43,495 nt of DNA from contig JAGRBF010000159.1 of the NCBI GenBank assembly GCA_020434205.1, positions 1 through 43,495 of the forward strand, given 5' to 3'. Positions 264 to 17,898 of this stretch are shown here, piece after piece. Position numbers and translations under genes: made by a program. Origin of the DNA: Calditrichota bacterium (GTDB lineage: Bacteria > Calditrichota > Calditrichia > RBG-13-44-9 > J075). Below the pieces are notes generated by a model. It made no database searches. It was given only the letters and a program-made list of their open reading frames with translations, and was not told the DNA's origin. How positions within the stretch are numbered: position 1 is the stretch's first letter; every line of letters starts with the position of its first letter.

Positions 264-3200
264 TCACTTCCCAATTAAAATAAAACTCGCCCACGAAAAG
301 GGGTTAGCGGTTTTAGGATCAGAGATCATTTTTAATTTTGCGGCCCGCAATGCATCTGCATAAGCATATTGATTGGAGAGAGCTGATTGGTAAAAAGCGA
401 ACATGAGTTTGGCCGTATGCTGATCCGGAACTTTCCAAAGTGAGGCAATTATGTTTTGGGTGCCTGTGTACAAAAACCCCCTGGTCAAAGCCATTAGCCC
501 TTCACCCGGAGCTAATTTCCCGGCACCGGTTTGGCAGGCGCTCAACACCAAAAGCTCAGGGGCCAAAGCCATGTTAAAGGTCTCTCCGGCAAATAGAAAT
601 CCATCCTCGGAATCGGTTGTATCCACCACCTGAGAAAAAGCCAGGAACGAATATTGAGGGTTTACCCCGTCCACAATACCATGGGTGGCAAGATGAACCA
701 TTCGGGCATTCCGGGAAGCCGTTTTAAACCGGCCTTCCGAACACATATCGTGCAGAAAAATTTGAGCGCGGTCGGGTTCAAACAAACGGGAGATTTGCTT
801 AACTTCCTGTTCGCTAAAACGAAGTTCCTCAAGTGAATTCCCATCCCTCAAGCGAAATGCGTCCAATGTATTTTTAACCAAATCCCAACTAATCCAATTT
901 GTTAGGCTTTCTAAAAATGTAGCGTTGGTTTCACGGAATACGGGGGCAAAACCGATGAAATCAATTGGAAATTTTTGATTCTTTTCTTCCACAACTGCTT
1001 TGTGATAAAGGGCTGAGGAGTAATGGTAATTGACCGAAAAACGTTTTATCAGATAGGGCAATTCGGTAAAATCCATTGGTGGGTCTTCGGCAGAGGTCGA
1101 TGAACACAACGATTCAAAAGGTAAACGCAGCAGTTCGCCATCGGGAATGATCACAATTTTCGTGCGGTTCTTAAGGTAAGGCTCAAATGGCCTAATGAGC
1201 TGACCGTAAAGGAATGAAGATGATTCTGCAAAGGTTTCCTTTGGGGAGAGAGCATGTGTGGAGGTGTTCAATTGATCCAAATGATGATCGAAATCGGAAG
1301 CTCGCTGAATTTTTAGGGGTATAAACCGGTCTGAGACAATACAAAAGGCATAAATATCCTTATCACCCAAAAAATACTCGATGATAACGATGCTATCGGC
1401 AATAACGCTCTGCAGTTGAGCCAAAGTAATGCTCTTGCTTTGATATTTCAGCTTTACATACTCAGGAAATTTTTCTTCCAGGATTTCGGTTAACTTTGAA
1501 TGGTCACGTTTGTAATTGAAAAGGCGGGTCCCTAAATCTTCTATCCGGGTGGTATCAAATTGAGACGTCTTCTGTTTTGCTTTCAGCAGCTCTGTTTCAC
1601 AAAAGACTATATTCTTGCGCAACTCAAGCTCTCGCCCAACCAGGCTATCCGGAATTTGCCCAAATTTTTGGGCCTTAACATCGGCAATCATCTTCAACAG
1701 GATAGCATTTTTGCTCCGGGCGGTCAATTCGTAGGCTAACTTATGGTACTCATTTTTGTTTCCATGCTCACTCAATTCCATGGCAACCCTGGCCCCCAGT
1801 TCAAAAAGCCGCCTGTTCTTTTGAGAAAGATCCAATAAGGACCCCTCTGCCCCAAAAGTCAATTGCAGATCATGGTAGAGGTCAAGCGCCATTTGGGCTG
1901 AGCTAAGACTCAATTCTAACCAGGGAACCTCCTTGTTCTCCAGATAGAGGTTTTCTGATGCTTCTGCTTTGAGGCTTAAAGCATTTAGTAAATCAATTTT
2001 GGACAAACTTGCTGATTCTCTGGGATTATTGAAAACATTGTCCTCATCAAAATCGGGGACGAGAGCAACGATCGCCCTTTGGGCATAGGTCATGGCCTGT
2101 TTAAAGTCCTGCCGATCAAAATACAAATGTGCAATTTCGAGAAGTGCTACGCCAACATAGGCATGTTTGGGGCCCAGGGATTGCTGACGATATTTGACCG
2201 CTTTATTGAAATTGTGCAGGGCGTTTTCCGTCGAATCCATCCCGTTGTAGATATTGCCGATAAGGATGTAAGCTTCGGTGCTGTAAAGGTGATCTTCTGA
2301 ATACTGGGAAAGGCGCTTTTCCAATCCTGTTTCTGCGTATTCAAGCGCTTTTTTAAAATTGCCAAGCTCCTTTTCAACCTTCCCAAGATCCATATAAATC
2401 CAGCTTTGTCGACCCGGTGGAAAGGAGATTTGGGTTGAAAGTCTTAGTGATTCTAAATAGTAATCCCTGGCCGTTTCCAATTGCCGTTTGTTGCGGTAAA
2501 CATCCCCCAATTCATTGGTCGCTTGTACTATTGCAGCGTGAATCGAACGTTGGTTAACATCGTTTTCTTTGAATATTTGTAATCCTCTGTTCGCGTAAAG
2601 CAAAGCAGTATCATAATCTCCCTTTTCCGAATATACCGCCACCAAATTGCTTATTGTCCTTGCTATTTGGGGATGATTTGGGGGGTATAAATCCTCGCAA
2701 ATATCAACAGAGGTTGTGAATTGAACAATTGCCTCATTTAAATCACCAGAACGCCAGTAAGCTCTCCCAAGATTTAAATGCGCCCTTGCAATTGGAAAAC
2801 GCACGTCTTCATTTTGCCCATTAAAAATATTAAGTGCTTCCTTAATGTTTCTAATGGATAAATCATAGTCGGTTCTTTGATAATACAGTATGCCAAGGCT
2901 GGTGTATACCAATCCTGCTTCCTTATGTTTTTTTCCCAAGGTTCTTTGATATATCCTCAGTGCTTTTTGCAAAGCTTTTTCTGAAAGCCCAAATTTGCCC
3001 GAATCAATGTAAACAACTCCTATAGAATGATTTGCCTTTGCCATCTGGAAATGATTTGTATCCAGGTGCGCGCTTACCAGAACAACCACGCTATCCAGAA
3101 GTCGCAGTGCCTGCGCTGACTGTAGATTCAACCAGTAATAATAACCGGCCTGGTTGAGGTTTTCGAGGCATTTTTCCCAAAAAACTTTTTCTGAGTATTC

Positions 3201-3422
3201 ATTGGCCAATCGGGAATAAATGGCCGCTGCCGCTTTGAATTTCGCTATAGTACTATCATAGTTCGATTTCTTGGCGAAGGACCGGGCTTGCTCAGCGAGT
3301 TGCTCTGCCTGCAAGGTATCTGCTGCAATCGGCGATTGGCTGTTCTGGCAATGGCCTTGAGGAAAAAACAAAGATAGCAGCATCAACAACGCGCAAACCA
3401 AAATGTTTACAATTGTTCTCAT
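264..3422 (-). CDS. Secreted TPR-repeat protein with C-terminal CHAT (caspase-like) domain
   Basis: ORF track gives 264..3524. I moved the start to ATG 3422: AGGAGG lies 8 nt upstream and the product begins with the signal-like MRTIVNILVCALLMLLSLFF. The body is a long array of TPR-like helical repeats. The C-terminal His/Cys dyad context (..VHLATHG.. and ..LVLSACQTGAGK..) is typical of CHAT domains. Confidence 0.85.
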   Translation of the reverse strand: MRTIVNILVCALLMLLSLFFPQGHCQNSQSPIAADTLQAEQLAEQARSFAKKSNYDSTIAKFKAAAAIYSRLANEYSEKVFWEKCLENLNQAGYYYWLNLQSAQALRLLDSVVVLVSAHLDTNHFQMAKANHSIGVVYIDSGKFGLSEKALQKALRIYQRTLGKKHKEAGLVYTSLGILYYQRTDYDLSIRNIKEALNIFNGQNEDVRFPIARAHLNLGRAYWRSGDLNEAIVQFTTSVDICEDLYPPNHPQIARTISNLVAVYSEKGDYDTALLYANRGLQIFKENDVNQRSIHAAIVQATNELGDVYRNKRQLETARDYYLESLRLSTQISFPPGRQSWIYMDLGKVEKELGNFKKALEYAETGLEKRLSQYSEDHLYSTEAYILIGNIYNGMDSTENALHNFNKAVKYRQQSLGPKHAYVGVALLEIAHLYFDRQDFKQAMTYAQRAIVALVPDFDEDNVFNNPRESASLSKIDLLNALSLKAEASENLYLENKEVPWLELSLSSAQMALDLYHDLQLTFGAEGSLLDLSQKNRRLFELGARVAMELSEHGNKNEYHKLAYELTARSKNAILLKMIADVKAQKFGQIPDSLVGRELELRKNIVFCETELLKAKQKTSQFDTTRIEDLGTRLFNYKRDHSKLTEILEEKFPEYVKLKYQSKSITLAQLQSVIADSIVIIEYFLGDKDIYAFCIVSDRFIPLKIQRASDFDHHLDQLNTSTHALSPKETFAESSSFLYGQLIRPFEPYLKNRTKIVIIPDGELLRLPFESLCSSTSAEDPPMDFTELPYLIKRFSVNYHYSSALYHKAVVEEKNQKFPIDFIGFAPVFRETNATFLESLTNWISWDLVKNTLDAFRLRDGNSLEELRFSEQEVKQISRLFEPDRAQIFLHDMCSEGRFKTASRNARMVHLATHGIVDGVNPQYSFLAFSQVVDTTDSEDGFLFAGETFNMALAPELLVLSACQTGAGKLAPGEGLMALTRGFLYTGTQNIIASLWKVPDQHTAKLMFAFYQSALSNQYAYADALRAAKLKMISDPKTANPFSWASFILIGK

Positions 3423-3965
3423 CGCCAAAGCCTCCTGATTGGTCAATTGTAAAGGGTAGCCTGGGAAGTCGTCAATAGTATCGATCCTGCATAAGCCCGA
3501 CGGGTTTGGAAAGCAATAAGTCAAAAATACTGAAAATTAGCATCAAATGCATAACCCTAAACCGGTTTCTAAAATACAGTCGCGGAAATTGCATGGACGA
3601 AGCTGGTACCCCAATGGCACAAAAAGCTAGCAGTTTACCTGGATCGATTAATATCAACCCTTTTATTTTAGAATGCTGCTTACTATTTTTGATCAGATCT
3701 GAATTGCCCATACGGAGTTTGGCCCTCCCTTTTAAGAGATAACCACGGTGATAACTGGCTTCGAAGTAAATGCTAAAATAGGCTCAAATACCGCCATTCC
3801 TCTTACGGGTTTCTGGTCACGTTCCGATCCTGGTCAAAATGCCCTGTTCGTTTGGCTAAATACGGAAGGGCATGTTGGACAATAAGGCAGTCGCAGAATT
3901 CGAGTCCTGAAAATAGGTTTTGGATTCCTAAAAACCTTTCTCATCAGCCGAATGGAAACAGATAA

Positions 3966-4580
3966 ATGAAGGATGCCGATCATTTAGAACTTTTCCGGCA
4001 GATAAAAGCAGGCGAAAAATCCGCTGAGGCGTCATTATTCCGGAAATATCAGGTCCCTATTCTCTGGAAAACCCGTAGACAAATCCATGCTGATCCGGAG
4101 ACCATTCGGGATATTGTCAGCGACATTCTCGCGGAAATCCTGACGACTTTGCACAAAAAAGACTTTGATCCTTATAAATGGGAATCGCTGGATGCACTGG
4201 CTTGGGGGATTACCCAGAATAAAATCCGAAATTGGTTCCGGCATCAGAAAGTGGTTGACAAATACAATCTACGCGAAGAGCTTAATGAAGAACTGGTTCA
4301 AGCGGCAGACCAACATCTGGTCGAAACGAATGAGGTTGCTCAACTGGTAAAAGATCTCTTGAAAACCCTCGCTCCCAAGTATCGTGAGGTGCTGATTTTG
4401 CGCTACTTGAAAGAGCTGAGTATTTCTGAAATTGGTGAAAAAGTAGGATTGCCTGAGAGAAGGGTTAGTGAACGGATCCATTACGCTTTGAAGCTCATGA
4501 ACAATGAATGCCAAAAACGAGGGATACTCTCAATATCCAGCATCCTTGGGTTATTTCCAATGTGGTGTAAAGCGTATTAA
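3966..4580 (+). CDS. ECF-type RNA polymerase sigma-70 family factor
   Basis: About 200 aa. Region 2-like segment (DIVSDILAEIL...WGITQNKIRNWFR) and region 4 HTH (YREVLILRYLKELSISEIGEKVGLPERRVSERIHYALKLM). Confidence 0.85.
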   Translation: MKDADHLELFRQIKAGEKSAEASLFRKYQVPILWKTRRQIHADPETIRDIVSDILAEILTTLHKKDFDPYKWESLDALAWGITQNKIRNWFRHQKVVDKYNLREELNEELVQAADQHLVETNEVAQLVKDLLKTLAPKYREVLILRYLKELSISEIGEKVGLPERRVSERIHYALKLMNNECQKRGILSISSILGLFPMWCKAY

Positions 4581-4597
4581 CCCAAAGAAGAGTAAAA

Positions 4598-5260
4598 ATG
4601 AGGAACAACAATACCGGCAATTGGCAAGATCGCATTGATGATTACCTTCTGGGTAACCTTAAAGAGGACGAGGTAAAAGCTTTCGAAATCTACTGTTTCG
4701 GAAATCCGGATTTTCTGAAGCAGGTGCGTTTGCGGGAACAACTCATCCAGGCAGTAAAAGAAGCACCCTCAGAAGCGGCACTAAGCCCGGGAAGTGATTC
4801 TGTTTTTGAAGATTATTCAAACAAAAGCGATCCAAAATTTTGGTGGTTGGGCATCGCGGCAGCAATTCTGCTCCTGGGTACCATTTTATTTCAGGGCTAT
4901 AATTATTACCAGGTTCAAAAGCTGCTACAAGGACCAACCTATCGTGAGAATCCATCCTATGAGGGTCTTTTGGAGCAAGAATTGCGATCGCAGACAAGTA
5001 AGATCAAAATCGTGAGTCCCGAAATGGGTCAAAAAACCCGTGGCCCCATTACCTTTCGGTGGAATATTACCCCTCAATCAACAAAGAGCGATTCCTTGCA
5101 ACTACTAATATTTGACAATCAAGGTCAGGAAACGATTGGTAAGACGCTAACCGGAGAAATCTTTGTTGTTTCTGAACCGCCTGAACCAGGCCTCTATTAT
5201 TGGGAGCTGTTGGATAGCCAGGGTTTGGTATATCTGGGTAAATTTATAGTTTTGCCCTGA
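4598..5260 (+). CDS. Putative anti-sigma factor (single-pass membrane protein)
   Basis: Starts 17 nt after the ECF sigma gene on the same strand. Short N-terminal cytoplasmic domain, one TM helix (FWWLGIAAAILLLGTILF) and an extracytoplasmic C-domain. Assigned by position and topology only. Confidence 0.55.
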   Translation: MRNNNTGNWQDRIDDYLLGNLKEDEVKAFEIYCFGNPDFLKQVRLREQLIQAVKEAPSEAALSPGSDSVFEDYSNKSDPKFWWLGIAAAILLLGTILFQGYNYYQVQKLLQGPTYRENPSYEGLLEQELRSQTSKIKIVSPEMGQKTRGPITFRWNITPQSTKSDSLQLLIFDNQGQETIGKTLTGEIFVVSEPPEPGLYYWELLDSQGLVYLGKFIVLP

Positions 5261-5493
5261 AGAATTCCCCCCAATTTTCTATTAACGTTTTTGGAAGAAC
5301 TTTTTTAGCCTGCCTCATAACCCCTATATACAGCTGACATTTTATCCCCCTCACCTCATTTCTGCATGAGAGCCTCATTTTTTTCTCTTTTCAATATTGT
5401 CGCCACTTAGGGTATTGGTTAGAAAATATGGGTTCACACATACCCGGATTTTTTTCAAAACACACCAATTGCCCATTAACCTGGAGGCATAAC

Positions 5494-6717
5494 ATGAAAA
5501 GATCTGCTATTGCTCGGTTCGTCTGGTTGCTCTTGTTCTCAATGATTCTATTCTCCTTTATTCAACCCGTATTTACCCAAACCGCTGACAAACCAGGGTC
5601 ATTGTCTAAAGTAATGTCAAGTGGCAAGGTTTATTGGACAAGTACGACGGGAGGCCATGTTGCCCGTGCCAATCTGGATGGAAGTGAGGTGGAAACGCTT
5701 ATTACCGGTCAGGGTTTGCCATCCGGCATAGCCCTGGACTATGCTGAAGGAAAAATTTACTGGGTGGAACGTCTGCGGAATCGGATTCAGCGCTCTAACA
5801 TGGATGGCTCAAGTATTGAGGCCATTGTTAGCGGTCTGGAGAGCCCGTATGGTTTGGCCATTGACACCCTGGGTAGAAAAATGTATTGGTACGCCGGAAG
5901 ATCATTGAAAATCCAGCGATCCAATTTGGATGGAACGGCGATTGAGGATATCGTAACCGGCGGAAGAATTGGGGAAGCTGGAGAACTTCACATTGATGCC
6001 AATGGACAGCAAATTTATTGGACCAATTGGGGAAGTTCCGGTTCTCTAATGCGTGCCGGGCTGGATGGCAGTAATGTAACCACGTTGTTAAGCAACATCA
6101 TTTTTCCTTATGGTATCGATATTGATTATTCCGCCAATAAGATATACTGGATAGAAATTCGACAGACTGATGGAAAGATTTGGCGTTGCAATTTGGATGG
6201 AAGTGAGCAGGAATCCGTTATTACAGGTATATCCAACTTCCCGAATGATTTGGCAATTGACGTTGAAGGCGGGAAAATGTATTGGACCCATTTTTCCGGG
6301 AGCAATGTTATTGAACGTGCCAATCTGGATGGCACCGAGCAAGAAATTTTGGTAACCGGTATTTCCGGTTCAGAAGGAATCGCCCTGGACTTAACAACGG
6401 TTGTTGGGCTGGATCCTTCTACCTCTACTCCAGCAGAAAGTTTTGAATTGTATGCCAACTACCCCAACCCTTTCAACCCGGAAACCCACATTGAATTCAA
6501 CCTGAGCCGGGCGGGCCAGGTGCGTCTGGAAATCTTTAATGTAGCCGGGGAAATGGTTGCGCTTTTGTTAGGGGAGTGGGTTAGCGCCGGACGTCATCAA
6601 CTCACCTGGCAGGGCCGCGATCAACATGGGCGTTCGGTTCCCAGCGGGGTTTACTTCTGCCGCCTCAGCAACAATGGCCAGCTTAGTAAAACCCGTAAAA
6701 TGATTCTCCTACGTTAG
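5494..6717 (+). CDS. YWTD (LDL-receptor class B) six-bladed beta-propeller protein with T9SS C-terminal sorting domain
   Basis: Start moved to ATG 5494 (GGAGG at 5483-5487; signal peptide MKRSAIARFVWLLLFSMILFSF). Six repeats of the K(V/I/M)YW..-..R.NLDGS.. type. C-terminal NYPNPFNPETHIEF...GVYFCRL...KMILLR. Confidence 0.8.
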   Translation: MKRSAIARFVWLLLFSMILFSFIQPVFTQTADKPGSLSKVMSSGKVYWTSTTGGHVARANLDGSEVETLITGQGLPSGIALDYAEGKIYWVERLRNRIQRSNMDGSSIEAIVSGLESPYGLAIDTLGRKMYWYAGRSLKIQRSNLDGTAIEDIVTGGRIGEAGELHIDANGQQIYWTNWGSSGSLMRAGLDGSNVTTLLSNIIFPYGIDIDYSANKIYWIEIRQTDGKIWRCNLDGSEQESVITGISNFPNDLAIDVEGGKMYWTHFSGSNVIERANLDGTEQEILVTGISGSEGIALDLTTVVGLDPSTSTPAESFELYANYPNPFNPETHIEFNLSRAGQVRLEIFNVAGEMVALLLGEWVSAGRHQLTWQGRDQHGRSVPSGVYFCRLSNNGQLSKTRKMILLR

Positions 6718-6848
6718 CCTGAAAAGAGCTGGCAGGGTTGCGGGTCCCGGCCAGCCACCTCCAATGGGATCTTCATTCCCTGAACATCATCATTAAATCC
6801 GAAAACCAAAATTGGCTGCGGTGTGCTTGCCCAAAAGGGGAGACTATT

Positions 6849-7655
6849 GTGAAAAAGCCTTACTTCTATTTCTCCGAAGTTCAATCTGCCGGGCAACTCC
6901 GGCAGCTGTTTAAACTGCGCTACCGCACTTACCAAAGCAGTCGTCTCAGGGGATTTTTAGAGGAAAATAAACATGAAATGGATCTGGATGGTTACGACCT
7001 GCGGTCCCGTCATTTTGGGCTGTTTGAGGCCGGAGAAGGGGCGGCTGATCCGGTTGGTCATTTGCGGGTTATTCAGGATCATGACGGCCCCAATCGGGAA
7101 CGGGTGTTGCGCGTGGCCAGAGAAACGGGATTTGACCCGGCAATGCTCGAACAGGCACCTTCAGAACCTTTTCCCCTAATTCTTTTTCATAAGGATGACA
7201 GAGTCTTGCAACATCTTTACCGTGGCTGCCGGGAAAGGGGGGCGTCATTGGTTGAAGCCTCGCGCCTATGCATTGCCGCTCCGGTGGCCTCCCCCGAACT
7301 GATGGCCTTTGTGATGCATTCCGCCATGGCCATTTACCTGCTGGTTCTTGGTTGTGATTACGCCATGATGGCCTGCTCTCCCAATCACACGCCCTTCTAC
7401 CGGATCGCCGGATGGCGGAAGTTTCCCAACGTCCCTCCATTTGATATCCACGGGGTGAGGCTTATCCCCATGATGATCACCAGGACACAAATTGCTGCTC
7501 CTTTAGCTCCCACTGTTGAATTGATGGCACAGGCCTATCGGGAAACCGGGCGGATTTGCTTTTATCCCCATAGCCGAGGGCACTTTTTGCCGCCTGATGA
7601 GCAAGAGCCTGGATCGCTAAAAGCTGATCAATTTGCCATGCCCCCTATTGAATAA
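6849..7655 (+). CDS. GNAT-fold N-acyltransferase, autoinducer-synthase / N-acyl-amino-acid-synthase (FeeM)-like
   Basis: ORF track starts at TTG 6738. GTG 6849 preceded by GGGGAG (6838-6843) is more plausible. The N-terminal pattern LFKLRYRTY...GF...DLDGYD...HFGLF recalls the LuxI/FeeM-like acyltransferase family from memory only. GC-richer than the flanks. Confidence 0.45.
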   Translation: MKKPYFYFSEVQSAGQLRQLFKLRYRTYQSSRLRGFLEENKHEMDLDGYDLRSRHFGLFEAGEGAADPVGHLRVIQDHDGPNRERVLRVARETGFDPAMLEQAPSEPFPLILFHKDDRVLQHLYRGCRERGASLVEASRLCIAAPVASPELMAFVMHSAMAIYLLVLGCDYAMMACSPNHTPFYRIAGWRKFPNVPPFDIHGVRLIPMMITRTQIAAPLAPTVELMAQAYRETGRICFYPHSRGHFLPPDEQEPGSLKADQFAMPPIE

Positions 7656-7716
7656 CCTCATACAGCAGATAGTTAAATTTTACAGTAAAACAACACCTGG
7701 TAACGGAGAATAAAAC

Positions 7717-8358
7717 ATGCGCAAGCTTCTCACCGCCATCATCTTAACCGCCTGTTTTTATCTGGTTCCCTTGTTGGGAAACCCGGGTCTGATCCTTGAT
7801 CCCCGAATCCTCACCCTGATCGTCGCCGCCCTTGTCCTGTTACTGACTCAGCCCGCTCTGAGCACCAAAGAAGCCCGGGAGCGGCGGGCAGATGACCGCT
7901 ACTCAGTGTTAATCATCATGGGAGTTACCGCCCTGGTGCAAATAATTTCCGTGCTTGAATGGGCATACGCCGATGCCGGGTTGTTTTCCGGGGGGAAAAT
8001 CCTTACCACCCTGGCAGCCACCCTGCTCTTAATGGGTATCCTGTTGCGATTGTGGGCCATTCGTGAATTGGGACGTTTCTTCACCGCCACCGTTTACATT
8101 GCCGAGGACCAGCAGATCATTACCAGCGGGCCTTTCACCATTGTTCGCCATCCCAGCTACTTGGGTGCCTACCTGGCTGTGATCGGCAGCGCCCTTTTGT
8201 TGGGATCATTCTGGGGCACCTTATTGGGGCTGGTTGGGCTCTTCGGCGCCTACCACCACCGCATTGCCGCTGAAGAAAAAGCCATGTTGGGCGCCTTTGG
8301 GGAGTCTTACCGCGCCTATCAGACCCGGACGCAGCGGATGATTCCCTTTGTGTGGTAG
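7717..8358 (+). CDS. ICMT/PEMT-family integral membrane methyltransferase
   Basis: Multiple TM helices. The C-terminal block GPFTIVRHPSYLGAYLAVIGSALLLGS ... EEKAML..FGESYRAYQ..T.RMIPFVW is characteristic of isoprenylcysteine carboxyl / phospholipid methyltransferase-type enzymes. GGAG lies 8 nt upstream of the ATG. Confidence 0.75.
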   Translation: MRKLLTAIILTACFYLVPLLGNPGLILDPRILTLIVAALVLLLTQPALSTKEARERRADDRYSVLIIMGVTALVQIISVLEWAYADAGLFSGGKILTTLAATLLLMGILLRLWAIRELGRFFTATVYIAEDQQIITSGPFTIVRHPSYLGAYLAVIGSALLLGSFWGTLLGLVGLFGAYHHRIAAEEKAMLGAFGESYRAYQTRTQRMIPFVW

Positions 8359-8610: not shown

Positions 8611-9573
8611 CTATTTTCCCCCCTCAACCGCCTTGCACACCCACTCCCGGTTCCTGGTGTAGGTCTCGGAATTGGCAAAAATGTGGGTAAAGCGGATTGT
8701 CGTCTGTGTATGGGCCTTCCCTTTGCGAAAGTTGTCAAAACCTGCCGGGATTTCCAGATTGAGGTAGGTGGAGAGGAGATGACGATCATGCAAATTGATT
8801 GGGTTGTTGCGCGGAATGTTGGTCAGGCAGAATTTTATCGCCGGGAATCTTTGCCGAACCGTTTTTCGGACCTCAGCTTCAATTTCCCTGGCCCCCGAAT
8901 CGGACATGCTTTTATCTTCTATCCGCGTGATCAGGTGAAAGTGAAACGCTACTCCAACTCTCGATGAGATGGTCTCCAAGATTTTGACAAGAAGCTGATA
9001 TCTTCTCTTAACCTGATAATCAGAACACAGGTAGGGATCGATCAACACAAATGCCTTTGAAGGGAGAAGAATTTCTCCCAGGATATCATCCAGGGAGGCG
9101 GCTTGACCCTGAGCAAAGGTTTTTGATTTTTCGCGGATCATAACCGACCACTTGCTTCGAAATTTTTCAACATCGAGTATCAAAACGCCATTTTGGGAGG
9201 CATAGCCCCGATCCTTCTGATTGGGTTTTTCTTTCAGGATCAAAAAAATCCGATCCCAAAAGGCCTTTTCTTCCAATAGAATTGGGTTAGCCTTTTCGTC
9301 TCCTTGCGGGAGCCGCTCATGTTCAAGGGGGACAATCGGACAATCCAAATTGTTGGGGTCTAAAAACTTCCTTAAGTGGGGATTTTCTCTGGCCTCCTGC
9401 CCCAATTGGGAAATTTGCCCCCTTACCAATTGCACATTACACTTTCCTTTTATGAAGGAAATGACGTTGAGTAACTGTTCGCTCCTTTCCAAATCCTCCT
9501 GTTCCCAGGAGAGGCGTAAGTCAACAAACAGGCGTTTGATAAAAAAATGGTCAACCCGCGTATTAAACCTCAA
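8611..9573 (-). CDS. Uncharacterised 320-aa partner of the upstream ATPase (possible PLD-fold / MIT_C-like C-terminal domain)
   Basis: TTG start overlaps the ATPase stop (TTGA, 9570-9573). I recognised no catalytic motif with confidence. C-terminal ..NPINLHDRHLLSTYLNLEIPAGFDNF.. weakly recalls the HDR...G.D motif of MIT_C/PLD-like folds. The start codon is uncertain. Confidence 0.55.
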   Translation of the reverse strand: MRFNTRVDHFFIKRLFVDLRLSWEQEDLERSEQLLNVISFIKGKCNVQLVRGQISQLGQEARENPHLRKFLDPNNLDCPIVPLEHERLPQGDEKANPILLEEKAFWDRIFLILKEKPNQKDRGYASQNGVLILDVEKFRSKWSVMIREKSKTFAQGQAASLDDILGEILLPSKAFVLIDPYLCSDYQVKRRYQLLVKILETISSRVGVAFHFHLITRIEDKSMSDSGAREIEAEVRKTVRQRFPAIKFCLTNIPRNNPINLHDRHLLSTYLNLEIPAGFDNFRKGKAHTQTTIRFTHIFANSETYTRNREWVCKAVEGGK

Positions 9574-11375
9574 TTCTTATGTCCTCCAGCTTCCCAAAAT
9601 TCAATGGCCAAATCGGTTGATTCGTCGAAGAATCCCGGTGGCCAGGGGTCCAAAAAAGCCCCTTTGTCGCCGAGCCTCATTTTTTGAACCTGCGAAATAC
9701 CTCTTTCATCCTGATTCACATAGAGGATGGCGACATCACCTGGTTTTAGTTTGCCCCCGGCAATAAGCACCTGGAGCTTACGGATCAGATATTCGCTATG
9801 GGTCTCCAGGATGATTTGCCTGCTAACATCGAGATTGGCCACAAAAAAATCGGCCAGTTTAGATTGCAGGGCAGGGTGTAACTGAGATTCGGGTTGCTCG
9901 ATCAGATAGATTTTGCTGCGCGGGTAATGGTAACTGGCAAAATCAATGAGAATGGGAAAAATCTGTCCCAATCCGTATCCGACATTGGCAAAATCCAGGG
10001 TCTTGCCGGTTCGTTTGTCCTTGAGGCCAAAATCTATCACGGTGCGTCCCGATTTTGCAGGTATCTCTTCGTATATCAGATCGTATTTCAAATCAAAAAG
10101 ATCTATCCATTCCTGGAGACTCTTAACCGGATCTCCCTCCGGGCTCATCCAGGTGATGTCTTTCCCCCTTTGAATCTCCCGGACCTTGCGAATCATGTCG
10201 TTTTTGAAACTTAATGCCAAATCCCGGGTCAATTCCTCCCGATGAGCAGCATAAAATTTGACCGCCAGATTTTGCTCATGGGCCCGTGAAACAGATGCTA
10301 TGGCAGATAATCTCAAACGCGCTAAGCGTCGACGTAATTTGTCAAAAAAGGTTAATATCGCCCACCTGTTGGCTAATCTAAAATACAGTTTTGCTTCTAA
10401 GGGGCTCCCTAACTTTTCCTCGATCTCGCGCAAGCCGTTTAATTGACCGATCATCTCCAAAAAGAAGTTAGCGATGTCGTCATCTTCCCAATTGATTTCC
10501 TCGAAGGGATAATCTGTCTCCCGATAAGCGTTGTTAGGAAGTATCTTCTTTAAATTGTCCCCGGGATCTTTTGATTTTGCAAAGTCCTTCCACTCCTCCC
10601 CGCCTTTTTGTTGCAGAAATGGGACCAATTCCACACCCGTTTCTTTCACAATATCCCAGAGATTCTCAAAGAGATCCAATTCATCCTCACCCGGGGAAAT
10701 GGCTTCCGAGAAAAACTCTGGCAACCATTCTGGCTCGTGTATGGCGCTTTTGAGAATATTGATCCCCGGGATCCCTGATCGATAATTTTTGGGATAAAGA
10801 ATAGGGTCAAAGTAATCCCCATTCTTAAAGCCGTAAAAAACATTGAAGATTTCCGTGAATAATTGTCTGACCTCTTCGTGATTACGCCTAAACAGGTTTT
10901 CCCACCTAATTGATTGAAACGAGCGCTCAATGTTTATCGGCCACTTAAACAGGTTGCCAGCCGCGTATTCAGGGGATCCAACTATTAAGTCGACCTGCAT
11001 GTCAATAGACGGCTCATCACAAAAGAAGGAGTAATCCGTAAAAATTGGCATCACCGGCTCATTATTATGCCAGTCGAAAATGAGTTTCGTTGCGAAATGG
11101 AAATTGGGCTGGATAATTTCAGGATATAATTGTTCGATTACACTGTAATCGACAGATATTTCCAAAGGCGTCGGATCCCCTGGAGTTAAATCCTGCCCAT
11201 CCGCATTCCAGTTCCAAATCAGCTCGTCGGGGCGACTGAACAACCATCTGATCAACCGCATAATGGAGGATTTACCGGTACTATTGGGACCAACCAAAAT
11301 GGTTAGCGGGGCAAATTCCAGATCGGTTCGTTTGATGAAGCTTCGGTAATTCTTAAAACCAAGTTTTTTAAGCAT
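9570..11375 (-). CDS. ABC/AAA_15-AAA_21-type ATPase with DUF3696-like C-terminus
   Basis: Walker A LTILVGPNSTGKSS, Walker B/D-loop IYLIEQPESQLHPALQ, H-loop ILETHSEYLI. A long insertion lies between Walker A and B, as in OLD/AbiL/PARIS/Septu-type ATPases. The C-terminal ..GAFLDPWPPGFFDES.. recalls DUF3696 (recollection). Confidence 0.85.
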   Translation of the reverse strand: MLKKLGFKNYRSFIKRTDLEFAPLTILVGPNSTGKSSIMRLIRWLFSRPDELIWNWNADGQDLTPGDPTPLEISVDYSVIEQLYPEIIQPNFHFATKLIFDWHNNEPVMPIFTDYSFFCDEPSIDMQVDLIVGSPEYAAGNLFKWPINIERSFQSIRWENLFRRNHEEVRQLFTEIFNVFYGFKNGDYFDPILYPKNYRSGIPGINILKSAIHEPEWLPEFFSEAISPGEDELDLFENLWDIVKETGVELVPFLQQKGGEEWKDFAKSKDPGDNLKKILPNNAYRETDYPFEEINWEDDDIANFFLEMIGQLNGLREIEEKLGSPLEAKLYFRLANRWAILTFFDKLRRRLARLRLSAIASVSRAHEQNLAVKFYAAHREELTRDLALSFKNDMIRKVREIQRGKDITWMSPEGDPVKSLQEWIDLFDLKYDLIYEEIPAKSGRTVIDFGLKDKRTGKTLDFANVGYGLGQIFPILIDFASYHYPRSKIYLIEQPESQLHPALQSKLADFFVANLDVSRQIILETHSEYLIRKLQVLIAGGKLKPGDVAILYVNQDERGISQVQKMRLGDKGAFLDPWPPGFFDESTDLAIEFWEAGGHKN

Positions 11376-11444
11376 GTTTATCGCCCTGGCAAAAATTCAG
11401 ATATCCGCGGATTACGTTAAATGACCGCAGTCGGAAACTGAGGA

Positions 11445-12109
11445 TTACTCCTCCCCAACCGCCAAACTCCAAAAGCGCTTTAAGGGGAGTTCGGCTTTGA
11501 TTTCTTCATCGATATTGTCATACACCTTGAAGAGCTCTTCGATGATGGCGTCCTGATCCCAAATGCGCACCTTGAAGAATTGATTAGGGATCTCGCGCTC
11601 TACGCTGTTTTTGAAGCCATTCCAGGAGACCATTAGCCCGAATTCGGCCCCCGCATTTTGCATGGCTCCAATGAGTTGATCCAGGGTGGGACGGTCAACC
11701 GGCGCCAATCATCCAGGGTGTCGAAGAGGGTGTTGTGCATGACTCAGTTTCATCCTCAAGTAGAAAAGATTGGTGTGGGGCGCGGGCTTATCGCTAAGCA
11801 TCCCATCAGGCATATTGTTCCAAATTATGCTTTCGCCAAATTGTGTTTAACCAGATACAATTTTGGTCAGAGCTTGGATTTCACCGAATCAAACAAATCC
11901 GGATTTTCAATCTCATACATACGGGGCATGGTCTCTAATAACCAGCCTTTTTTGTCGATAAGATCCCTATTGCGTACAAAGCGATCAACAAGGGTATTCA
12001 TGGCTTCCATTTGCTGGATTTCTGTCATCATTGGATTGTTCATGTAGCGGGTTCGAATCAGTTGTATCAGAGCGTCATCAAATTCTAACCCACTTTGTCT
12101 GGCCGACAA
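11445..12109 (-). pseudogene. Decayed Mrr-like (PD-(D/E)xK) restriction endonuclease remnant, split over at least two frames
   Basis: ORF 11445..11708 encodes only a C-terminal tail resembling the end of Mrr_cat domains (..VDRPTLDQLIGAMQNAGAEFGLMVSWNGFKNSVEREIP...VRIWDQDAIIEELF..). It has a TTG pseudo-start directly after an in-frame TGA. ORF 11867..12109 is in another frame, and the stretch between them is broken by stops. Confidence 0.45.
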
Positions 12110-12284
12110 AAACTCTTTAAATTGGTCTTTACGAGGCCGGAAGTTACTTCCCTGCGCCCTTGAGCATACCTCAAATACAGATACCCGGCGATGATCAGCA
12201 ACAGAATGAAGACTTTCATATTGGACTCCTGTAGTGACAATTATTTGGGGTTGCGTTTGTTCAATTATTGGGATAAGTGAAAGG

Positions 12285-13277: not shown

Positions 13278-14018
13278 TCAGTGCTTCCCCCAAAAAAACG
13301 ACCCGAATTCTTCAACCGACATTAGCGGCTCGGTTTTGTGAATCATGCGGTGACAGTTGGCGCAAAGGATCGCCAGGTCTTCGAGGGTTGTGAAGGACTT
13401 ATCTTCGAGACTTGCCAGGGGAACTCTGTGGTGCACCTCGAAGCATGCCAAACCAATCTCCTCCGGGAGGTCGCGGGAATTGAGGCCGCAAACTTCACAA
13501 CGAAGACAGCCGTCTTTTTTAAGAAGCAGCTCTTTTTTGAATTTTGCCAAGCCGGGTTTGCGTTCCCGGACGTAATGAAGTCTGAGCTTCTTATTGCCTT
13601 CCATCTGCCCGGGAAATTCAATTTCGGCGTTATCGCTAAGCTCGATGCCCTTTACCTGCTCCAGGAAAAGAACCGCAATGGCAATCTCCCGTACCCCCTC
13701 CCACTGGCGATATTGGGAATCATAGCTAAGTCCAGCAGCACGGAATTCCCCCTGATAGCGCCAGTTGTGAGAAGCCTGTTTGATAAAAACGGGGATAATG
13801 TTTTTGTCGTCAACCAGCCATTGGGCACTTTTTTTGACCTGGGGTCCGGCGCCGATATCGATAAAAAATGGGGCCCGGCGGTTTTTTTTAGGGTCGAAAC
13901 AGCCGCAGAGGACTTTCCCGTTCCGGGTTGGCAAATAAGACTGAGCACTACCACCGCCCAAAAGATCTCTGATTTGCCCTCTGGTGTAGGGGGTATCGCA
14001 GCTAAACAGTTTTTTCAT
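13278..14018 (-). CDS. HNH endonuclease with N-terminal uncharacterised (possibly modified-DNA reader) domain, McrA-like type IV candidate
   Basis: C-terminal HNH: CEVCG...FEVHHRVPL...LAILCANCHRMIH. The N-terminal ~150 aa (..YTRGQIRDLLGGGSAQSYLPT..IPVFIKQASHNWRYQGEF..) has no catalytic motif. Confidence 0.8.
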   Translation of the reverse strand: MKKLFSCDTPYTRGQIRDLLGGGSAQSYLPTRNGKVLCGCFDPKKNRRAPFFIDIGAGPQVKKSAQWLVDDKNIIPVFIKQASHNWRYQGEFRAAGLSYDSQYRQWEGVREIAIAVLFLEQVKGIELSDNAEIEFPGQMEGNKKLRLHYVRERKPGLAKFKKELLLKKDGCLRCEVCGLNSRDLPEEIGLACFEVHHRVPLASLEDKSFTTLEDLAILCANCHRMIHKTEPLMSVEEFGSFFWGKH

Positions 14019-14109: not shown

Positions 14110-15108
14110 TTATTTCAATGAGAACACATCTTGTTGTTTGTTGCGCCTGTTTTTTGCATTTCGTTTGATATAACCCAGGCTAATTAACCACTCTATACAA
14201 GCTGTTCTGTTATTCTCTGAAACCGCATTTATGTTATCTGTTAGCTCCGTATAATTCGCCTCTTTTCTATCAGAGAGAAAGCCAATAATCTCTCCAAGGG
14301 GCAGGGCCGCACGCTCCTCTAAAAGTTTAAACATTTCCTCTTTAGATTGTATTTTTTTCAGGATCTTGACTTTCTGTTGATCGCAGTCAATTAGGCCTAA
14401 GTATTGCAGAAAGAACAACTTTTGGCTTGTGTTGTTTGGGGCGTTATTTTTCCCCTTGCCCGACCTTTCTGCCAATTCTTTTTCAAAATCTTCGCGTTTC
14501 CAGGGGCTTTTCTTCATTAGTTTTTTTAGCTTCTGCCAATAATCACCACCCAACCGTGGTTCCGGAATAAATTCGTACATACTTTTTTGGATTTTCTTGA
14601 AATTGTTTTCCCAGATATTGTTAAGGTCTTTCAACTCATCCCGGCTGAGTTCAAAGGAGTGATTTTCCCATTGATCATTGAACCACTTATACAAGTCGGC
14701 AATCAGTTCCTGCTCCTTTTTGGTCTTATCGGTCAAGAGCATGTTTAATTCGTCGTTTAGTAACTCCCCGCCACGGGTCAGGTTACTCGAGCCGAAAAGG
14801 GCAGATTTGCCGGGCACCAAAAACAATTTGGCATGCAGATGGGGGTTGTTGCGGATTTTAATAGGGGCAGAATTTCTCTCGAATTCGGCCAACTGAGAGA
14901 CAGGGTTGCTCAGGCTGAAGACAACATTCATCGGATTTAAATTGGTCAGAAGTTTGATGGTAAGCCCTTTTCTTTTATCGACGAAATCGGCAAAAAGCTT
15001 ACTGCCAGATTCGCTGATAAAGGGGCTGCTGATGTAGATTTCAGAAAACCGCTTTTTTTTCAACGACTTCAGGAATTCGCCAATGGGCTTATTGTTGGTA
15101 AACTCCAT
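14110..15108 (-). CDS. PLD-superfamily (single HKD motif) nuclease with C-terminal winged-helix-like domain; DrmC-like candidate
   Basis: HKD motif NPHLHAKLFLVPGKSALFGSSNLTRGG (about nt 14779-14835). GGGAG lies 6 nt upstream of the ATG. Single-HKD nuclease-type (Nuc/BfiI-like) proteins act as dimers. Confidence 0.8.
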   Translation of the reverse strand: MEFTNNKPIGEFLKSLKKKRFSEIYISSPFISESGSKLFADFVDKRKGLTIKLLTNLNPMNVVFSLSNPVSQLAEFERNSAPIKIRNNPHLHAKLFLVPGKSALFGSSNLTRGGELLNDELNMLLTDKTKKEQELIADLYKWFNDQWENHSFELSRDELKDLNNIWENNFKKIQKSMYEFIPEPRLGGDYWQKLKKLMKKSPWKREDFEKELAERSGKGKNNAPNNTSQKLFFLQYLGLIDCDQQKVKILKKIQSKEEMFKLLEERAALPLGEIIGFLSDRKEANYTELTDNINAVSENNRTACIEWLISLGYIKRNAKNRRNKQQDVFSLK

Positions 15109-15186: not shown

Positions 15187-17898
15187 TTACTCGATGAAAC
15201 GGTTTTGATAATCCACAGATTTATTCCAGAACTTTTTGAGTATTATCATACTTTTCTCACCCAGGGAATGCCCACAGCTTTTGTTTTGGCATTTCCAAAA
15301 ATCACGGTTTTGACTGAGGATCTCGCCACATTTAGGGCAGGAGGCAATTTTTTTGTCATGATGCTCTTTGCAGCAGGCATGACAATCCTGACAAACCAAC
15401 CAGTTGTTGTGACACCTTGGGCAATCACGGCTATCAATGATGTGATTGTTTTCGCCGGAACAATCCGGATTTAAGCAATGGGTAAGTCTAACAATCTCCT
15501 CGAACTGTGAGCATTCCTGGTTTGAGCACTTAAACAAAGGAACCGCATAAAAACCAACCCGTTTCGGTTCAAAGGGCTCTGGCCTGAGCAAGTTTTTACA
15601 AGCTCGACACTCCAACCGATTCAGAATTTCATTCATTCGATTGGCCCAGCCAGCATATCTGGCATAAATGCGGTGAATGTCTTTTTGGGGGTTATTGGAT
15701 GTTATAATCCCAATAGCCGGTAAAATTTCACAAAGAGTCCACTGGTGTGGTGGCAGGTCAAAGTCAGCTTCGCGGTTTGGTTTACTACAGATTCTACCCC
15801 GACACCAAAAAGAAGGATACTTTTTCTGAGTATATTCATTTCGGTCTTTATTAAAAAATGGCTCTTCCTTCCAAAAATTTCCCTCGCAGAACCCGGATGG
15901 ACACAATGGATGGTTTGAATCTTGCTCCAGCCAAAAACTTCCCCCAAAACTTACGTATTTCCCCCGATAATCATATCCAATATCACCTTTATAGAATTTT
16001 CTACCATCACATGTTTTCAACAAATTCTCAATGGTGGGTTTAAAACTTTTTAAGGATTTAATAGACACATAAAAGGAAGTGTTTAATGCGATCTTAAAGT
16101 CTTCAAAGGATTTTTCACCCGATAGTAAAATCGCCTGCAATATGGACGCATTCAATTCAGTAAACTGTATTTGCGTTAATTGATTTTTTAAATCTGCGGT
16201 GGAAAATTTTCCATGATATACCGAATAAGCCCAATACCGAATCAAATCGGCCTGATAATGCTCTGGAAGTTCCTTGAGTATGTGGTTTAATTGGGCACAG
16301 TCGTTTGCTGAAATACGCCCCAGAAAGGCCCTCCACACGACTCCTTTACCTTCTTGCGACTGCTTTCCAGCCAACCGTTCAAATGTTTCCTGAAGGTCAT
16401 GGCTGCCGGCTTCAATTTTGTCTAATTCATGGTAAAAGCTGCAATGAGGAAGAGACCTTGCCATATCTGGAAATTCAAAATCGACAAAATATTGTTCCGC
16501 ATACATTTCGTTTGGAAAGATTTGGAGCCATTTTAACCGTTCATCCCGGTCAAGTTTTGAAAAGTGGGCAAAGAGCTTTTTCTCAAAAGTTGCCAATTTA
16601 GATCTGGGAAGACTTTTGGATTGAATGGTTTGCGCAAGAATATTGAATTCCTGATGTCCGATGAGATCCAAGTTGTTTATGGTCTCAATTAGAAGATTCT
16701 CCTCGGTGATGATTTCCAATAGCGATATCAGGAGAATTGCAGGCAATTGAAAGAAAAGGGATAATTGAGAGGGTGAAACTTCAGGCAATTTGTCTACAAA
16801 ATATCTCAAATGTTCTTTTGATAGGTGTCTTGTCTCGGTTGGGTTACTGTGCAGGAATTGGAGTATCCCTGTGGTTACCCCCTGCAAATCACCATAGTTC
16901 TTTCCGTTTTTACGAAAGAAATGAAGAACAATCTCTAAGTCGCTTACCGATTGAATCTGGACCTGGTTGAGGATTATCCCCGAAATTTCAGGGTCGTTGG
17001 CAAGCTCGACCATCTTGAGTTGGACTGCTACAGGAAAATCGGACAAATCATCTAATAAAGGGTTGACAATCATTTGCCAGATTCGTTCCAGGCGATGATT
17101 GTCCTCAAATGAATTTGCCGATAAAAAAGCATCAGCAAGCAAAATTGTCTTCGAATCCCACTTGACCTCAATCAGGCATTTTTCCAGTAATTCCTGGCTG
17201 TTTAGAAACCGGCTGATAGCCAGTTGTAATGAAAAGTCTAGATTTGAAAAGGTCCTGATGATGTTAACACTGAAATTCTCCGGGACAAGGCTGGCCAATG
17301 TCTCATCCTCAATCAATTTTTGGATCAATTGTACGGAGTTGCCACTTTGCCTGAAATCCCATTTAGCCAGGAGATGGGTAACCAAACCCCGAAATGCATC
17401 AATCCTTGCCAGGTTCAACAAATCATTCGGATTAACCATCTCAAATGTATCAATCAGAATCTCATTGATACGCTCTTGCTGAGTTTGAGAAAACTGGGCA
17501 AGTAAATCGAAACGTTTTCGTTGGATAATGACCCGGCAGGAAGCTTCTAACTCTGATTGGTCAAAATCGACTTTTCTGCGAAGTAAATCTTCCAAAATGG
17601 TGAGTGCGATGGGGAAGTCCCAACAAGCAGTTAAAGTCTTTCGCCAGAGCTCTGGCCTTGATTCTGATATCAATTCAACTTTTCGACCTCTCAAACCCTC
17701 TTCGCGCTTCTCCAGTCGAAAAGAAACCGGTACCCCTTCAAAGTATTGATGGGGGTTTTGGAAGGCATCCTTCACTCGAAAAAAGACGTCTCCTTCACAA
17801 GGCTGTGTCTCCGACCTTGCCGAATGAATGAATCCGAAACCATTCTTTTCGTAATCGAGGAATTTTACCAGACCAAAACAAAGCTCTTTGTCATGCAT
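15187..17898 (-). CDS. 903-aa protein of unknown function: N-terminal cold-shock (CSD/OB) domain, long helical middle, C-terminal multi-zinc-ribbon region
   Basis: N-terminal GLVKFLDYEKNGFGFIHS matches the CspA-type GxVKWFnxxkGFGFI motif. The C-terminal ~200 aa hold about 9 CxxC/CxxH pairs (..LECRACKNL..FKCSNQECS..HCLNPDCSG..IIDSRDCPRCH..CQDCHACC..CPKCGEIL..WKCQNKSCGH), the last resembling a topoisomerase-type C4 finger. No P-loop. Paralogue of 37587..39800. Confidence 0.7.
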   Translation of the reverse strand: MHDKELCFGLVKFLDYEKNGFGFIHSARSETQPCEGDVFFRVKDAFQNPHQYFEGVPVSFRLEKREEGLRGRKVELISESRPELWRKTLTACWDFPIALTILEDLLRRKVDFDQSELEASCRVIIQRKRFDLLAQFSQTQQERINEILIDTFEMVNPNDLLNLARIDAFRGLVTHLLAKWDFRQSGNSVQLIQKLIEDETLASLVPENFSVNIIRTFSNLDFSLQLAISRFLNSQELLEKCLIEVKWDSKTILLADAFLSANSFEDNHRLERIWQMIVNPLLDDLSDFPVAVQLKMVELANDPEISGIILNQVQIQSVSDLEIVLHFFRKNGKNYGDLQGVTTGILQFLHSNPTETRHLSKEHLRYFVDKLPEVSPSQLSLFFQLPAILLISLLEIITEENLLIETINNLDLIGHQEFNILAQTIQSKSLPRSKLATFEKKLFAHFSKLDRDERLKWLQIFPNEMYAEQYFVDFEFPDMARSLPHCSFYHELDKIEAGSHDLQETFERLAGKQSQEGKGVVWRAFLGRISANDCAQLNHILKELPEHYQADLIRYWAYSVYHGKFSTADLKNQLTQIQFTELNASILQAILLSGEKSFEDFKIALNTSFYVSIKSLKSFKPTIENLLKTCDGRKFYKGDIGYDYRGKYVSFGGSFWLEQDSNHPLCPSGFCEGNFWKEEPFFNKDRNEYTQKKYPSFWCRGRICSKPNREADFDLPPHQWTLCEILPAIGIITSNNPQKDIHRIYARYAGWANRMNEILNRLECRACKNLLRPEPFEPKRVGFYAVPLFKCSNQECSQFEEIVRLTHCLNPDCSGENNHIIDSRDCPRCHNNWLVCQDCHACCKEHHDKKIASCPKCGEILSQNRDFWKCQNKSCGHSLGEKSMIILKKFWNKSVDYQNRFIE

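Follow-up and report, generated by a model that had tools for sequence, protein, structure and literature searches.

The 43,495-nucleotide stretch of DNA analysed here (the window, taken at its full length), from contig JAGRBF010000159.1 of the Calditrichota bacterium assembly GCA_020434205.1, raises the question of whether two coupled genes on its reverse strand, encoding a 601-residue ATPase of the ATP-binding cassette (ABC) type and a 320-residue partner protein, form a defence system of their own and, if so, of which kind. Our analysis indicates that the pair is probably a self-standing two-gene anti-phage module of the NsnB/NsnC type, in effect a Menshen core that lacks NsnA, and that it probably acts through abortive infection. 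A first-pass annotation of the same sequence had proposed a two-gene defence pair with a partner that could not be placed. The first part of that proposal stands as a conserved, coupled unit within a defence island, whereas the partner proved less uncharacterised than claimed. Foldseek and profile matches resolve it into two fused domains, one PIN-like and divergent, the other of the MIT_C-type phospholipase D (PLD) fold, an architecture that matches the published inPIN plus PB-PLD1 effector type.

Menshen consists of NsnA, NsnB and NsnC (Millman et al. 2022). A subsequent domain analysis (Li et al., NAR 2025, PMC12065111) proposed NsnA, which combines ParB-DUF262 and ParBDB domains, as the sensor and NsnB, an AAA_15 ABC ATPase with a DUF3696 tail, as the transducer, and described NsnC as an N-terminal inactive PIN-like domain (inPIN) followed by one of 15 C-terminal effector families, of which at least 12 are nucleases. 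One of these families, PB-PLD1, has a PLD fold with an aspartate or glutamate after beta2 and an HDR motif before beta5, and is related to MIT_C (2YMB) and to BrxL C-termini. According to the same study, NsnB deviates from canonical ABC motifs in its Walker B (DE to EN), signature (SGG to GxG) and Q-loop (Q to R), and AlphaFold 3 models of an NsnB tetramer show the paired DUF3696 tails sandwiching the NsnC inPIN domain. Sporadic domain loss and pseudogenisation are also mentioned there, and because the census was seeded on DUF262 proteins it could not include loci without NsnA (PMC12065111). In a recent preprint, Menshen operons are reported to protect against T4, and their components to co-purify in complexes of higher order.

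The resemblance to Menshen begins with the ATPase. Pfam matches to AAA_15 (4.6e-25), AAA_21 (1.6e-21) and DUF3696 (3.7e-7, residues 544-588), together with the Walker A, Walker B and H-loop motifs, bear out the earlier assignment of this protein to the ABC group that includes OLD, AriA and PtuA. Among PADLOC models NsnB scored best (2.7e-41), ahead of PDC-M55A (3.6e-35), AriA (2.2e-29) and the HEC-03 ATPase (4e-29), with GajA, Old and AbiLi far lower; NCBIfam returned P-loop-level matches only. NsnB was also the top model for five of six other ATPases that precede a member of the partner family (1e-38 to 1e-45). An alignment of 26 members of the clade supplied the motifs (Table 1). Walker B is EQPE in most of them and QQPE in the remainder; this E-Q variant, in place of the canonical D-E and analogous to the E-N of NsnB, suggests a slow-hydrolysing switch and not a motor. 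The GxG signature, the E-Q Walker B and the DUF3696 tail are conserved throughout the clade, in parallel with the deviations described for NsnB. The DUF3696 tail carries the motif WPPGFFDES...FWE, and the last 35 residues of the protein (9573-9677) are identical at 30 of 35 positions (86%) to the ATPase of one relative, L049, compared with 34% identity over the full length. Such conservation points to strong constraint, probably on an effector-binding surface, and by analogy with the published Menshen models the tail is predicted to clamp the N-terminal domain of the partner. The best-scoring NsnB stretch covers residues 417-587 and short N-terminal matches (e.g. to GajA and Old) cover approximately residues 1-50; between these lies a large lineage-specific insert that could be aligned in two relatives only (P0004, 28% identity; the L049 ATPase, 34%) and that may serve as a sensor or an oligomerisation surface.

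The partner is where our results depart most from the first-pass annotation. An AlphaFold2 model built from the family alignment comprises two domains at high confidence (mean pLDDT 90.5, pTM 0.89). The N-terminal domain has the topology beta1-alpha-alpha-beta2-alpha-alpha-beta3-alpha-beta4-alpha-beta5-alpha, and nearly all of its top approximately 20 Foldseek matches in the PDB are PIN domains, including VapC4 (5h4g, probability 0.99), AF0591, 1o4w, 1y82, Utp24/Fcf1, Nmd4, SMG6 and EST1A. The C-terminal domain has as its top match the MIT_C domain of MITD1 (2ymb_A; E-value 7.5e-6, target-normalised TM-score 0.72, root-mean-square deviation 3.0 Å). The family profile likewise matches the MITD1 MIT_C structures 2ymb (1.5e-9) and 4a5z (5.5e-9), with the IxDxY and HDR motifs in register. 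Both Foldseek and PADLOC had been proposed as checks in the first-pass annotation, and the single PADLOC match of the partner is to the C-terminus of a BrxL model (5.7e-7). NCBIfam gave no match to the partner, and Pfam gave none to its N-terminal domain alone or to the partners of other clade members. The absence of Toprim/DUF4435, HNH and UvrD domains from both proteins was confirmed with Pfam, PADLOC and NCBIfam.

Sequence conservation in the partner family is concentrated around a putative active site. Word-indexed homologue searches found two matches for the partner and four with the family profile, and tblastn against plasmids found none, whereas an exhaustive profile search of 1.84 billion representative proteins recovered 95 relatives. 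Three of these are close (the window partner, P0002 and P0029); the remainder are 300-370 residues long and have mainly the C-terminal approximately 190 residues in common. In an alignment of 71 members, Asp179, H262 and R264 are invariant, and W161, Y181, N194, D263 and F279 are nearly so. Asp179 corresponds to the aspartate or glutamate that follows beta2 in PB-PLD1 and MIT_C. The weak HDR hint of the first-pass annotation is H262-D263-R264, which fits the published account of PB-PLD1 and, as a MIT_C/PLD-like motif, is the sole recognisable signature of the partner. Matches to Pfam MIT_C were obtained for 28 of the 71 (best 3e-11), to the BrxL C-terminus for eight and to the PADLOC NsnC model for four. 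PIN acidic positions are unconserved in the wider family, with D8, E84, E115 and D121 retained by the close trio. As a separate observation on database records, the window ATPase has a 100% identical 403-residue partial counterpart in a record assigned to a Nitrospirales metagenome-assembled genome (MAG), and the record of the partner is assigned to a Calditrichaeota MAG (P0003 and P0001), which reflects either one contig binned twice or clashing taxonomic assignments.

The open reading frames (ORFs) of the two genes share four nucleotides, TTGA, in which the stop of the ATPase gene overlaps the partner start as originally described, and the unusual TTG start is backed by a strong Shine-Dalgarno sequence, GGAGGA. 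The L049 relative has the identical 4-nucleotide overlap and TTG start. A promoter and terminator scan around the pair gave counts that did not differ from those of shuffled sequence. Using a 14-sequence subgroup alignment we recovered 37 related genome loci (L009-L045), nearly all from Bacteroidota, and in all 35 that retain upstream sequence the partner-family gene lies directly 3' of a DUF3696-type ATPase gene, at a spacing of -14 to +51 nucleotides (median 3). Co-occurrence of the two families in other genomes, suggested earlier as a check on the pair, therefore held strongly, and the pairing is no coincidence. The same order recurs in L001-L003, L008, L049 and the rumen Prevotella plasmid pE2-28.

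NsnA is missing from this arrangement. No ORF scanned with Pfam and PADLOC within approximately 10 kb of the window pair matched DUF262/GmrSD_N or NsnA, and DUF262 was found in none of 29 upstream and none of 28 downstream ORFs of the related genome loci. Loci L001-L003, which encode P0004 and P0002, lack NsnA and have 400-620 non-coding nucleotides upstream; L049, a 689-kb contig and the probable locus of P0029, also lacks it, the pair there being flanked by an OLD-family nuclease on the upstream side and by an integrase on the downstream side. Plasmid pE2-28 (L047) has the order WYL regulator, small ORF, ATPase and partner (2.9e-33), adjoins a type I restriction-modification system and again has no NsnA. 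Since the related loci are also without NsnA, its absence from the window is not a product of local decay. A hidden NsnA downstream of the partner was rejected, as none of the 28 downstream ORFs contains DUF262, and so were the upstream genes of approximately 340 codons in Bacteroidota loci, which proved to be WYL/WCX regulators or unrelated genes. WYL/WCX regulators stand upstream in 9 of 29 Bacteroidota loci and SF1/PIF1-like helicases (approximately 650-720 residues) downstream in approximately 9 of 28; one or the other could belong to a subtype as an accessory component. The remaining flanking ORFs are assorted defence or toxin-antitoxin genes. In Salegentibacter (L008) the pair closes a tight operon that opens with a ZorA-like gene. 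This gapless series (2158-7969, CANMYV010000004.1) encodes a ZorA-like protein (515 residues), proteins of 241 and 282 residues, an NsnB-like ATPase (568 residues) and a PLD-type partner (322 residues), with a GmrSD_N protein just upstream of the operon, and may combine a Zorya-like membrane sensor and the ATPase-effector pair into a hybrid.

These observations, which establish the gene structure and coupling, the two folds, the conserved motifs, the strict linkage of the genes, the lack of NsnA and the defence-island setting, suggest a working mechanism, in which complex formation, the sensing partner, the mode of activation, the substrate and the phenotype are all inferred. The ABC ATPase would oligomerise through its nucleotide-binding heads, and its DUF3696 tails would clamp the PIN-like N-terminal domain of the partner so that the MIT_C-type PLD domain is kept inactive. 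A phage-derived cue would then be read by the ATPase itself, most plausibly through the approximately 370-residue insert because no separate sensor exists, and would change the ATP-bound state, such that the effector is freed or activated. Once released from control, the PLD-fold domain would cut a phosphodiester using D179 and H262-D263-R264, most likely in nucleic acid, halting the infection at the cost of the cell. Nucleic acid appears the likelier target because most NsnC effectors are nucleases and because PLD-fold nucleases are among the fold matches of the C-terminal domain, namely the NgoAVII R-protein, PLD3/4 bound to single-stranded DNA, SauUSI and Zucchini.

The nature of that target is the point at which an alternative of some substance arises. 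With the same architecture, the MIT_C-type domain might instead act on the membrane, as a phospholipid phosphodiesterase, a disruptor or an anchor in the manner of MITD1, with envelope damage as the outcome. The MITD1 MIT_C domain is by far the closest structure and is known as a membrane-binding module, and we know of no demonstrated enzymatic activity for the MIT_C fold. Lipid enzymes, too, are found among the good fold matches (phosphatidylserine synthase 8yr6/3hsi, vaccinia F13, PLD1/2), and the canonical HKD is replaced by HDR. We nevertheless consider a membrane target a serious but less likely alternative: the nuclease matches listed above are also part of the fold neighbourhood, the invariant D...HDR polar cluster suggests catalysis over mere binding, and no transmembrane or amphipathic segment was seen in the AlphaFold2 model of the partner. 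The predominance of nucleases among NsnC effector families and the derivation of the N-terminal domain from an RNase fold argue in the same direction.

Several points weigh against the interpretation of the pair as a catalytic, NsnA-less Menshen core, beginning with the two features of MIT_C just mentioned. The canonical PLD motif H-x-K-x4-D is absent from the partner, the 71-member alignment showing HDR and a separate upstream aspartate instead. Taken alone, the partner matches Pfam MIT_C (PF16565) over residues 161-286 with an E-value of 0.0028, at 18 bits compared with a gathering score of 25, and the window partner has no match to the PADLOC NsnC model. The PIN-like assignment of the N-terminal domain rests on weak Foldseek scores (best E-value 4.5e-3, TM-scores 0.47-0.50) that are consistent in the fold they point to, and an hhalign comparison of the N-domain family with the PIN protein of a bona fide HEC-03 system indicated no relation (probability 0.04). 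The E-Q Walker B could mean that ATP hydrolysis by the ATPase is lacking altogether, and the predicted contact between tail and PIN-like domain is borrowed from the published AlphaFold 3 models of Menshen. The close clade is tiny, with 3 loci among the 1.84 billion representative proteins searched, and a defence role for the pair and the partner family is argued from homology and context.

The same genetic context permits a reading in which the main role of the pair is that of a toxin-antitoxin or addiction module, stabilising its genomic island, with the ATPase as the neutralising component. The layout, two tightly coupled genes of which the second encodes a probable toxic enzyme, would fit such a role, as would the toxicity of HEC-03 on induction and the occurrence of the pair beside integrases and other toxin-antitoxin genes and on a plasmid. 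However, an ABC ATPase of 600-780 residues would be an atypical antitoxin, the related Menshen and HEC-03 systems give phage-specific protection, and the frequent WYL/WCX regulators and embedding in defence islands point to immunity; we thus consider a primarily addictive function improbable, while noting that it is compatible with, and does not exclude, a role in defence. That the locus is a non-functional Menshen remnant, which lost NsnA in the deletion that truncated a neighbouring Mrr gene, is very improbable, for although positions 11376-12284 upstream of the ATPase hold only debris (an 83-codon 3' fragment of Mrr and an 80-residue ORF) and domain loss and pseudogenisation are mentioned for Menshen (PMC12065111), neither ORF is disrupted and every motif is conserved, the debris is of the Mrr/PDC-S02 type and not DUF262, and NsnA is likewise absent at L001-L003 and L049, with no DUF262 flanking the 35 genome loci or the plasmid pair.

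How much of this is new is a matter of combination. The type of ATPase, the two kinds of domain and the two-gene logic have all been published, and the likeness to NsnB/NsnC and the precedent of HEC-03 weaken the claim of novelty that an absence of any match to a named system would have carried. The claim retains force in that the locus lacks NsnA and the partner is called by none of the models in PADLOC v2; we found no name for the pair in the searchable literature, and the conserved pairing of an NsnA-less NsnB-like ATPase with a PIN-like/MIT_C effector appears to be undescribed. An NsnB-NsnC core with a PLD/MIT_C-type effector and without NsnA occurs as a conserved pair in dozens of genomes, mainly of Bacteroidota, as well as in a Calditrichaeota MAG and on a rumen Prevotella plasmid. 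This implies that the ATPase and effector together function autonomously and that the ATPase can do the sensing itself, which bears on the question of how the NsnA "sensor" communicates with NsnB in Menshen. As current PADLOC models leave the pair uncalled, defence censuses probably underestimate the number of such modules. The pair also offers a compact test bed for catalysis by MIT_C through the conserved D...HDR, a matter relevant to some BrxL proteins and to human MITD1. A bolder possibility, to which we give only limited credence, is that NsnA-independent core Menshen constitutes a widespread unnamed defence family in which the ATPase insert is the phage sensor and the MIT_C PLD domain a true enzyme. 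If so, the MIT_C fold would have its first assigned catalytic activity, which would bear on the C-termini of BREX BrxL and on eukaryotic MITD1, and NsnA would be an optional add-on sensor and not the initiator of Menshen signalling.

The surroundings of the pair are those of a defence island, as the first-pass annotation had recognised. Adjoining the ATPase gene is the dead Mrr gene that it also reported, of which only the last approximately 83 residues remain (11445..11708, reverse strand); this is the 3' end of a 346-residue protein of PDC-S02/Mrr_cat type whose 5' three-quarters were deleted, not frameshifted. Its candidacy as a system component was rejected, since only its 3' end is left and no related locus contains it. 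Beyond it lies an 80-residue ORF (11867-12109) that matches no family. To the right of the pair, a dense defence island spans window positions 13278-37415 (Table 1). GC content near the pair is approximately 0.45-0.50, like that of the left flank, and the rise from approximately 0.45 to 0.53-0.62 across 18-35 kb suggests a foreign block further to the right. Two proteins of 903 and 737 residues (15187-17898 and 37587-39800, both reverse strand) have a cold-shock-like N-terminal domain and no other family match, and to the left of the island a 1086-residue protein with TPR and CHAT (caspase-like protease) domains (264-3524, reverse strand) is of a conflict-system type.

Table 1. Features of the ATPase-partner pair and of the neighbouring defence island, in window coordinates
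Feature	Position	Strand	Details and basis
NsnB-like ABC ATPase, 601 residues	9570..11375	(-)	Intact ORF, ATG start; AAA_15/AAA_21 core and DUF3696 C-terminal tail
Walker A / P-loop GPNSTGKSS, residues 29-37	11265..11291	(-)	26-member alignment
Large lineage-specific insert, residues ~50-416 (~370 residues)	10128..11228	(-)	No family match
ABC signature variant GYGLGQ, residues 466-471, GxG in place of SGG	9963..9980	(-)	26-member alignment
Walker B IYLIEQPE, residues 489-496, canonical D-E replaced by E-Q	9888..9911	(-)	26-member alignment
H-loop ETHS, residues 524-527	9795..9806	(-)	26-member alignment
DUF3696 C-terminal tail, residues 544-601, containing WPPGFFDESTDLAIEFWEAGGHKN	9573..9746	(-)	Pfam DUF3696 at 544-588
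Coupling junction	9570..9587	(-)	GGAGGA 9587-9582, 8-nucleotide spacer, TTG 9573-9571, ATPase stop TGA 9572-9570
NsnC-like effector (partner), 320 residues	8611..9573	(-)	Intact ORF, TTG start
N-terminal divergent PIN-like domain (predicted), residues 1-148	9130..9573	(-)	Separate model pLDDT 88.7, Foldseek
C-terminal MIT_C-type PLD-fold domain (predicted), residues 149-320	8614..9129	(-)	Family profile, Foldseek, Pfam MIT_C in relatives
Asp179, motif hhhh-D-P-Y after beta strand	9037..9039	(-)	Invariant, 71 members
H262-D263-R264 (HDR), putative active site	8782..8790	(-)	H262 and R264 invariant, D263 at least 90%, 71 members
HNH protein	13278-14018		
DrmC-like PLDc_2 protein	14110-15108		
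DrmD-like SNF2 helicase	18277-21099		2.6e-101
Type IIG restriction-methylase	21184-25881		4.8e-281
DruE-like helicase, 2121 residues, C-terminal HNH	25800-32165		
UvrD/GajB-like helicase	32195-34333		
PDC-S69	36609-37415		

Comparison with named systems places the pair within a broader group of defence ATPases. PARIS (AriA/AriB), Septu (PtuA/PtuB), Gabija (GajA) and OLD resemble it in the use of an AAA_15-type ABC ATPase oligomer to regulate a nuclease effector, and the window ATPase scores from 1e-29 to 1e-12 against the models of AriA, GajA, Old and AbiLi. These ATPases differ in having no DUF3696 tail, and NsnB scores well above their models. The pair was rejected as a member of PARIS, Septu, Gabija, OLD or AbiL on the grounds that neither a Toprim/DUF4435 or HNH partner nor a corresponding fused domain is present. 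Membership of PDC-M55 was set aside as well, since PDC-M55A was the second-best model for the ATPase but the only PADLOC match of the partner is to BrxL and not to PDC-M55B.

HEC-03 (Payne et al., bioRxiv 10.1101/2024.01.29.577857), an ABC ATPase with a PIN protein, protects E. coli, requires both genes for defence and is toxic on induction. It shares with the window pair a two-gene, NsnA-independent organisation in which a gene for a DUF3696-tailed ABC ATPase has a PIN-fold protein encoded by the coupled gene after it. The HEC-03 partner, however, is a VapC-like PIN protein alone, of approximately 160-180 residues, whereas the PIN-like domain of the window partner is highly divergent and fused to a PLD domain, the probable effector, and the window partner has no PADLOC match to the HEC-03 PIN model PDLC04147. 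A bona fide HEC-03 locus with the same gene layout (L007) shows what membership looks like, its ATPase matching the HEC-03 model at 1.5e-125 and its 180-residue partner matching the PIN model at 1.3e-24; with an ATPase score of 4e-29, the window pair was rejected as a member. On nomenclature, PADLOC-DB (models PDLC04147/PDLC04148) labels the 159-residue PIN protein as HEC-03 A and the 458-residue ATPase as B, the reverse of the preprint, in which HEC-03A is the ATPase and HEC-03B the PIN protein, so that matches are easily misinterpreted. In L007 (5001-7625, a metagenomic contig) and in an Aeromonas conjugative plasmid (L048, 3134-5762), the HEC-03-type pair is immediately followed by an RNA-ligase-family gene, which may be a conserved third HEC-03 component, for example in repair or self-immunity.

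For the C-terminal domain, the comparison extends to MITD1 MIT_C and some BrxL C-termini, which share its PLD-like fold (TM-score 0.72 to 2ymb) and its conserved acidic residue and HDR. MITD1 differs in its eukaryotic origin, its association with ESCRT-III and its MIT domain at the N-terminus, and in BrxL the MIT_C-like domain follows a Lon-like ATPase; both are without a PIN-like N-terminal domain and an NsnB-like partner.

Menshen itself differs from the window pair in several respects. NsnA, the protein that carries ParB-DUF262 plus ParBDB, is absent at the window pair; the window ATPase exceeds the NsnB model, of 345 positions, by approximately 250 residues by virtue of its large insert; and its Walker B reads E-Q where that of NsnB reads E-N. 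The ATPase has the NsnB architecture of an AAA_15 core, GxG signature, non-canonical Walker B and DUF3696 tail, and its gene is coupled to that of the effector, located directly downstream. The partner likewise has the NsnC architecture of a PIN-like domain plus an effector of the PB-PLD1/MIT_C type with D...HDR, a likeness drawn from the published description of PB-PLD1 and not from a reference sequence. In the wider clade, DUF3696-tailed ATPases consistently precede a coupled gene without Pfam matches, with products of 168, 180, 308 and 352 residues. As these coupled downstream genes vary, the clade can be viewed as a chassis with exchangeable downstream effectors, of which the window pair is the PIN-like plus MIT_C/PLD version.

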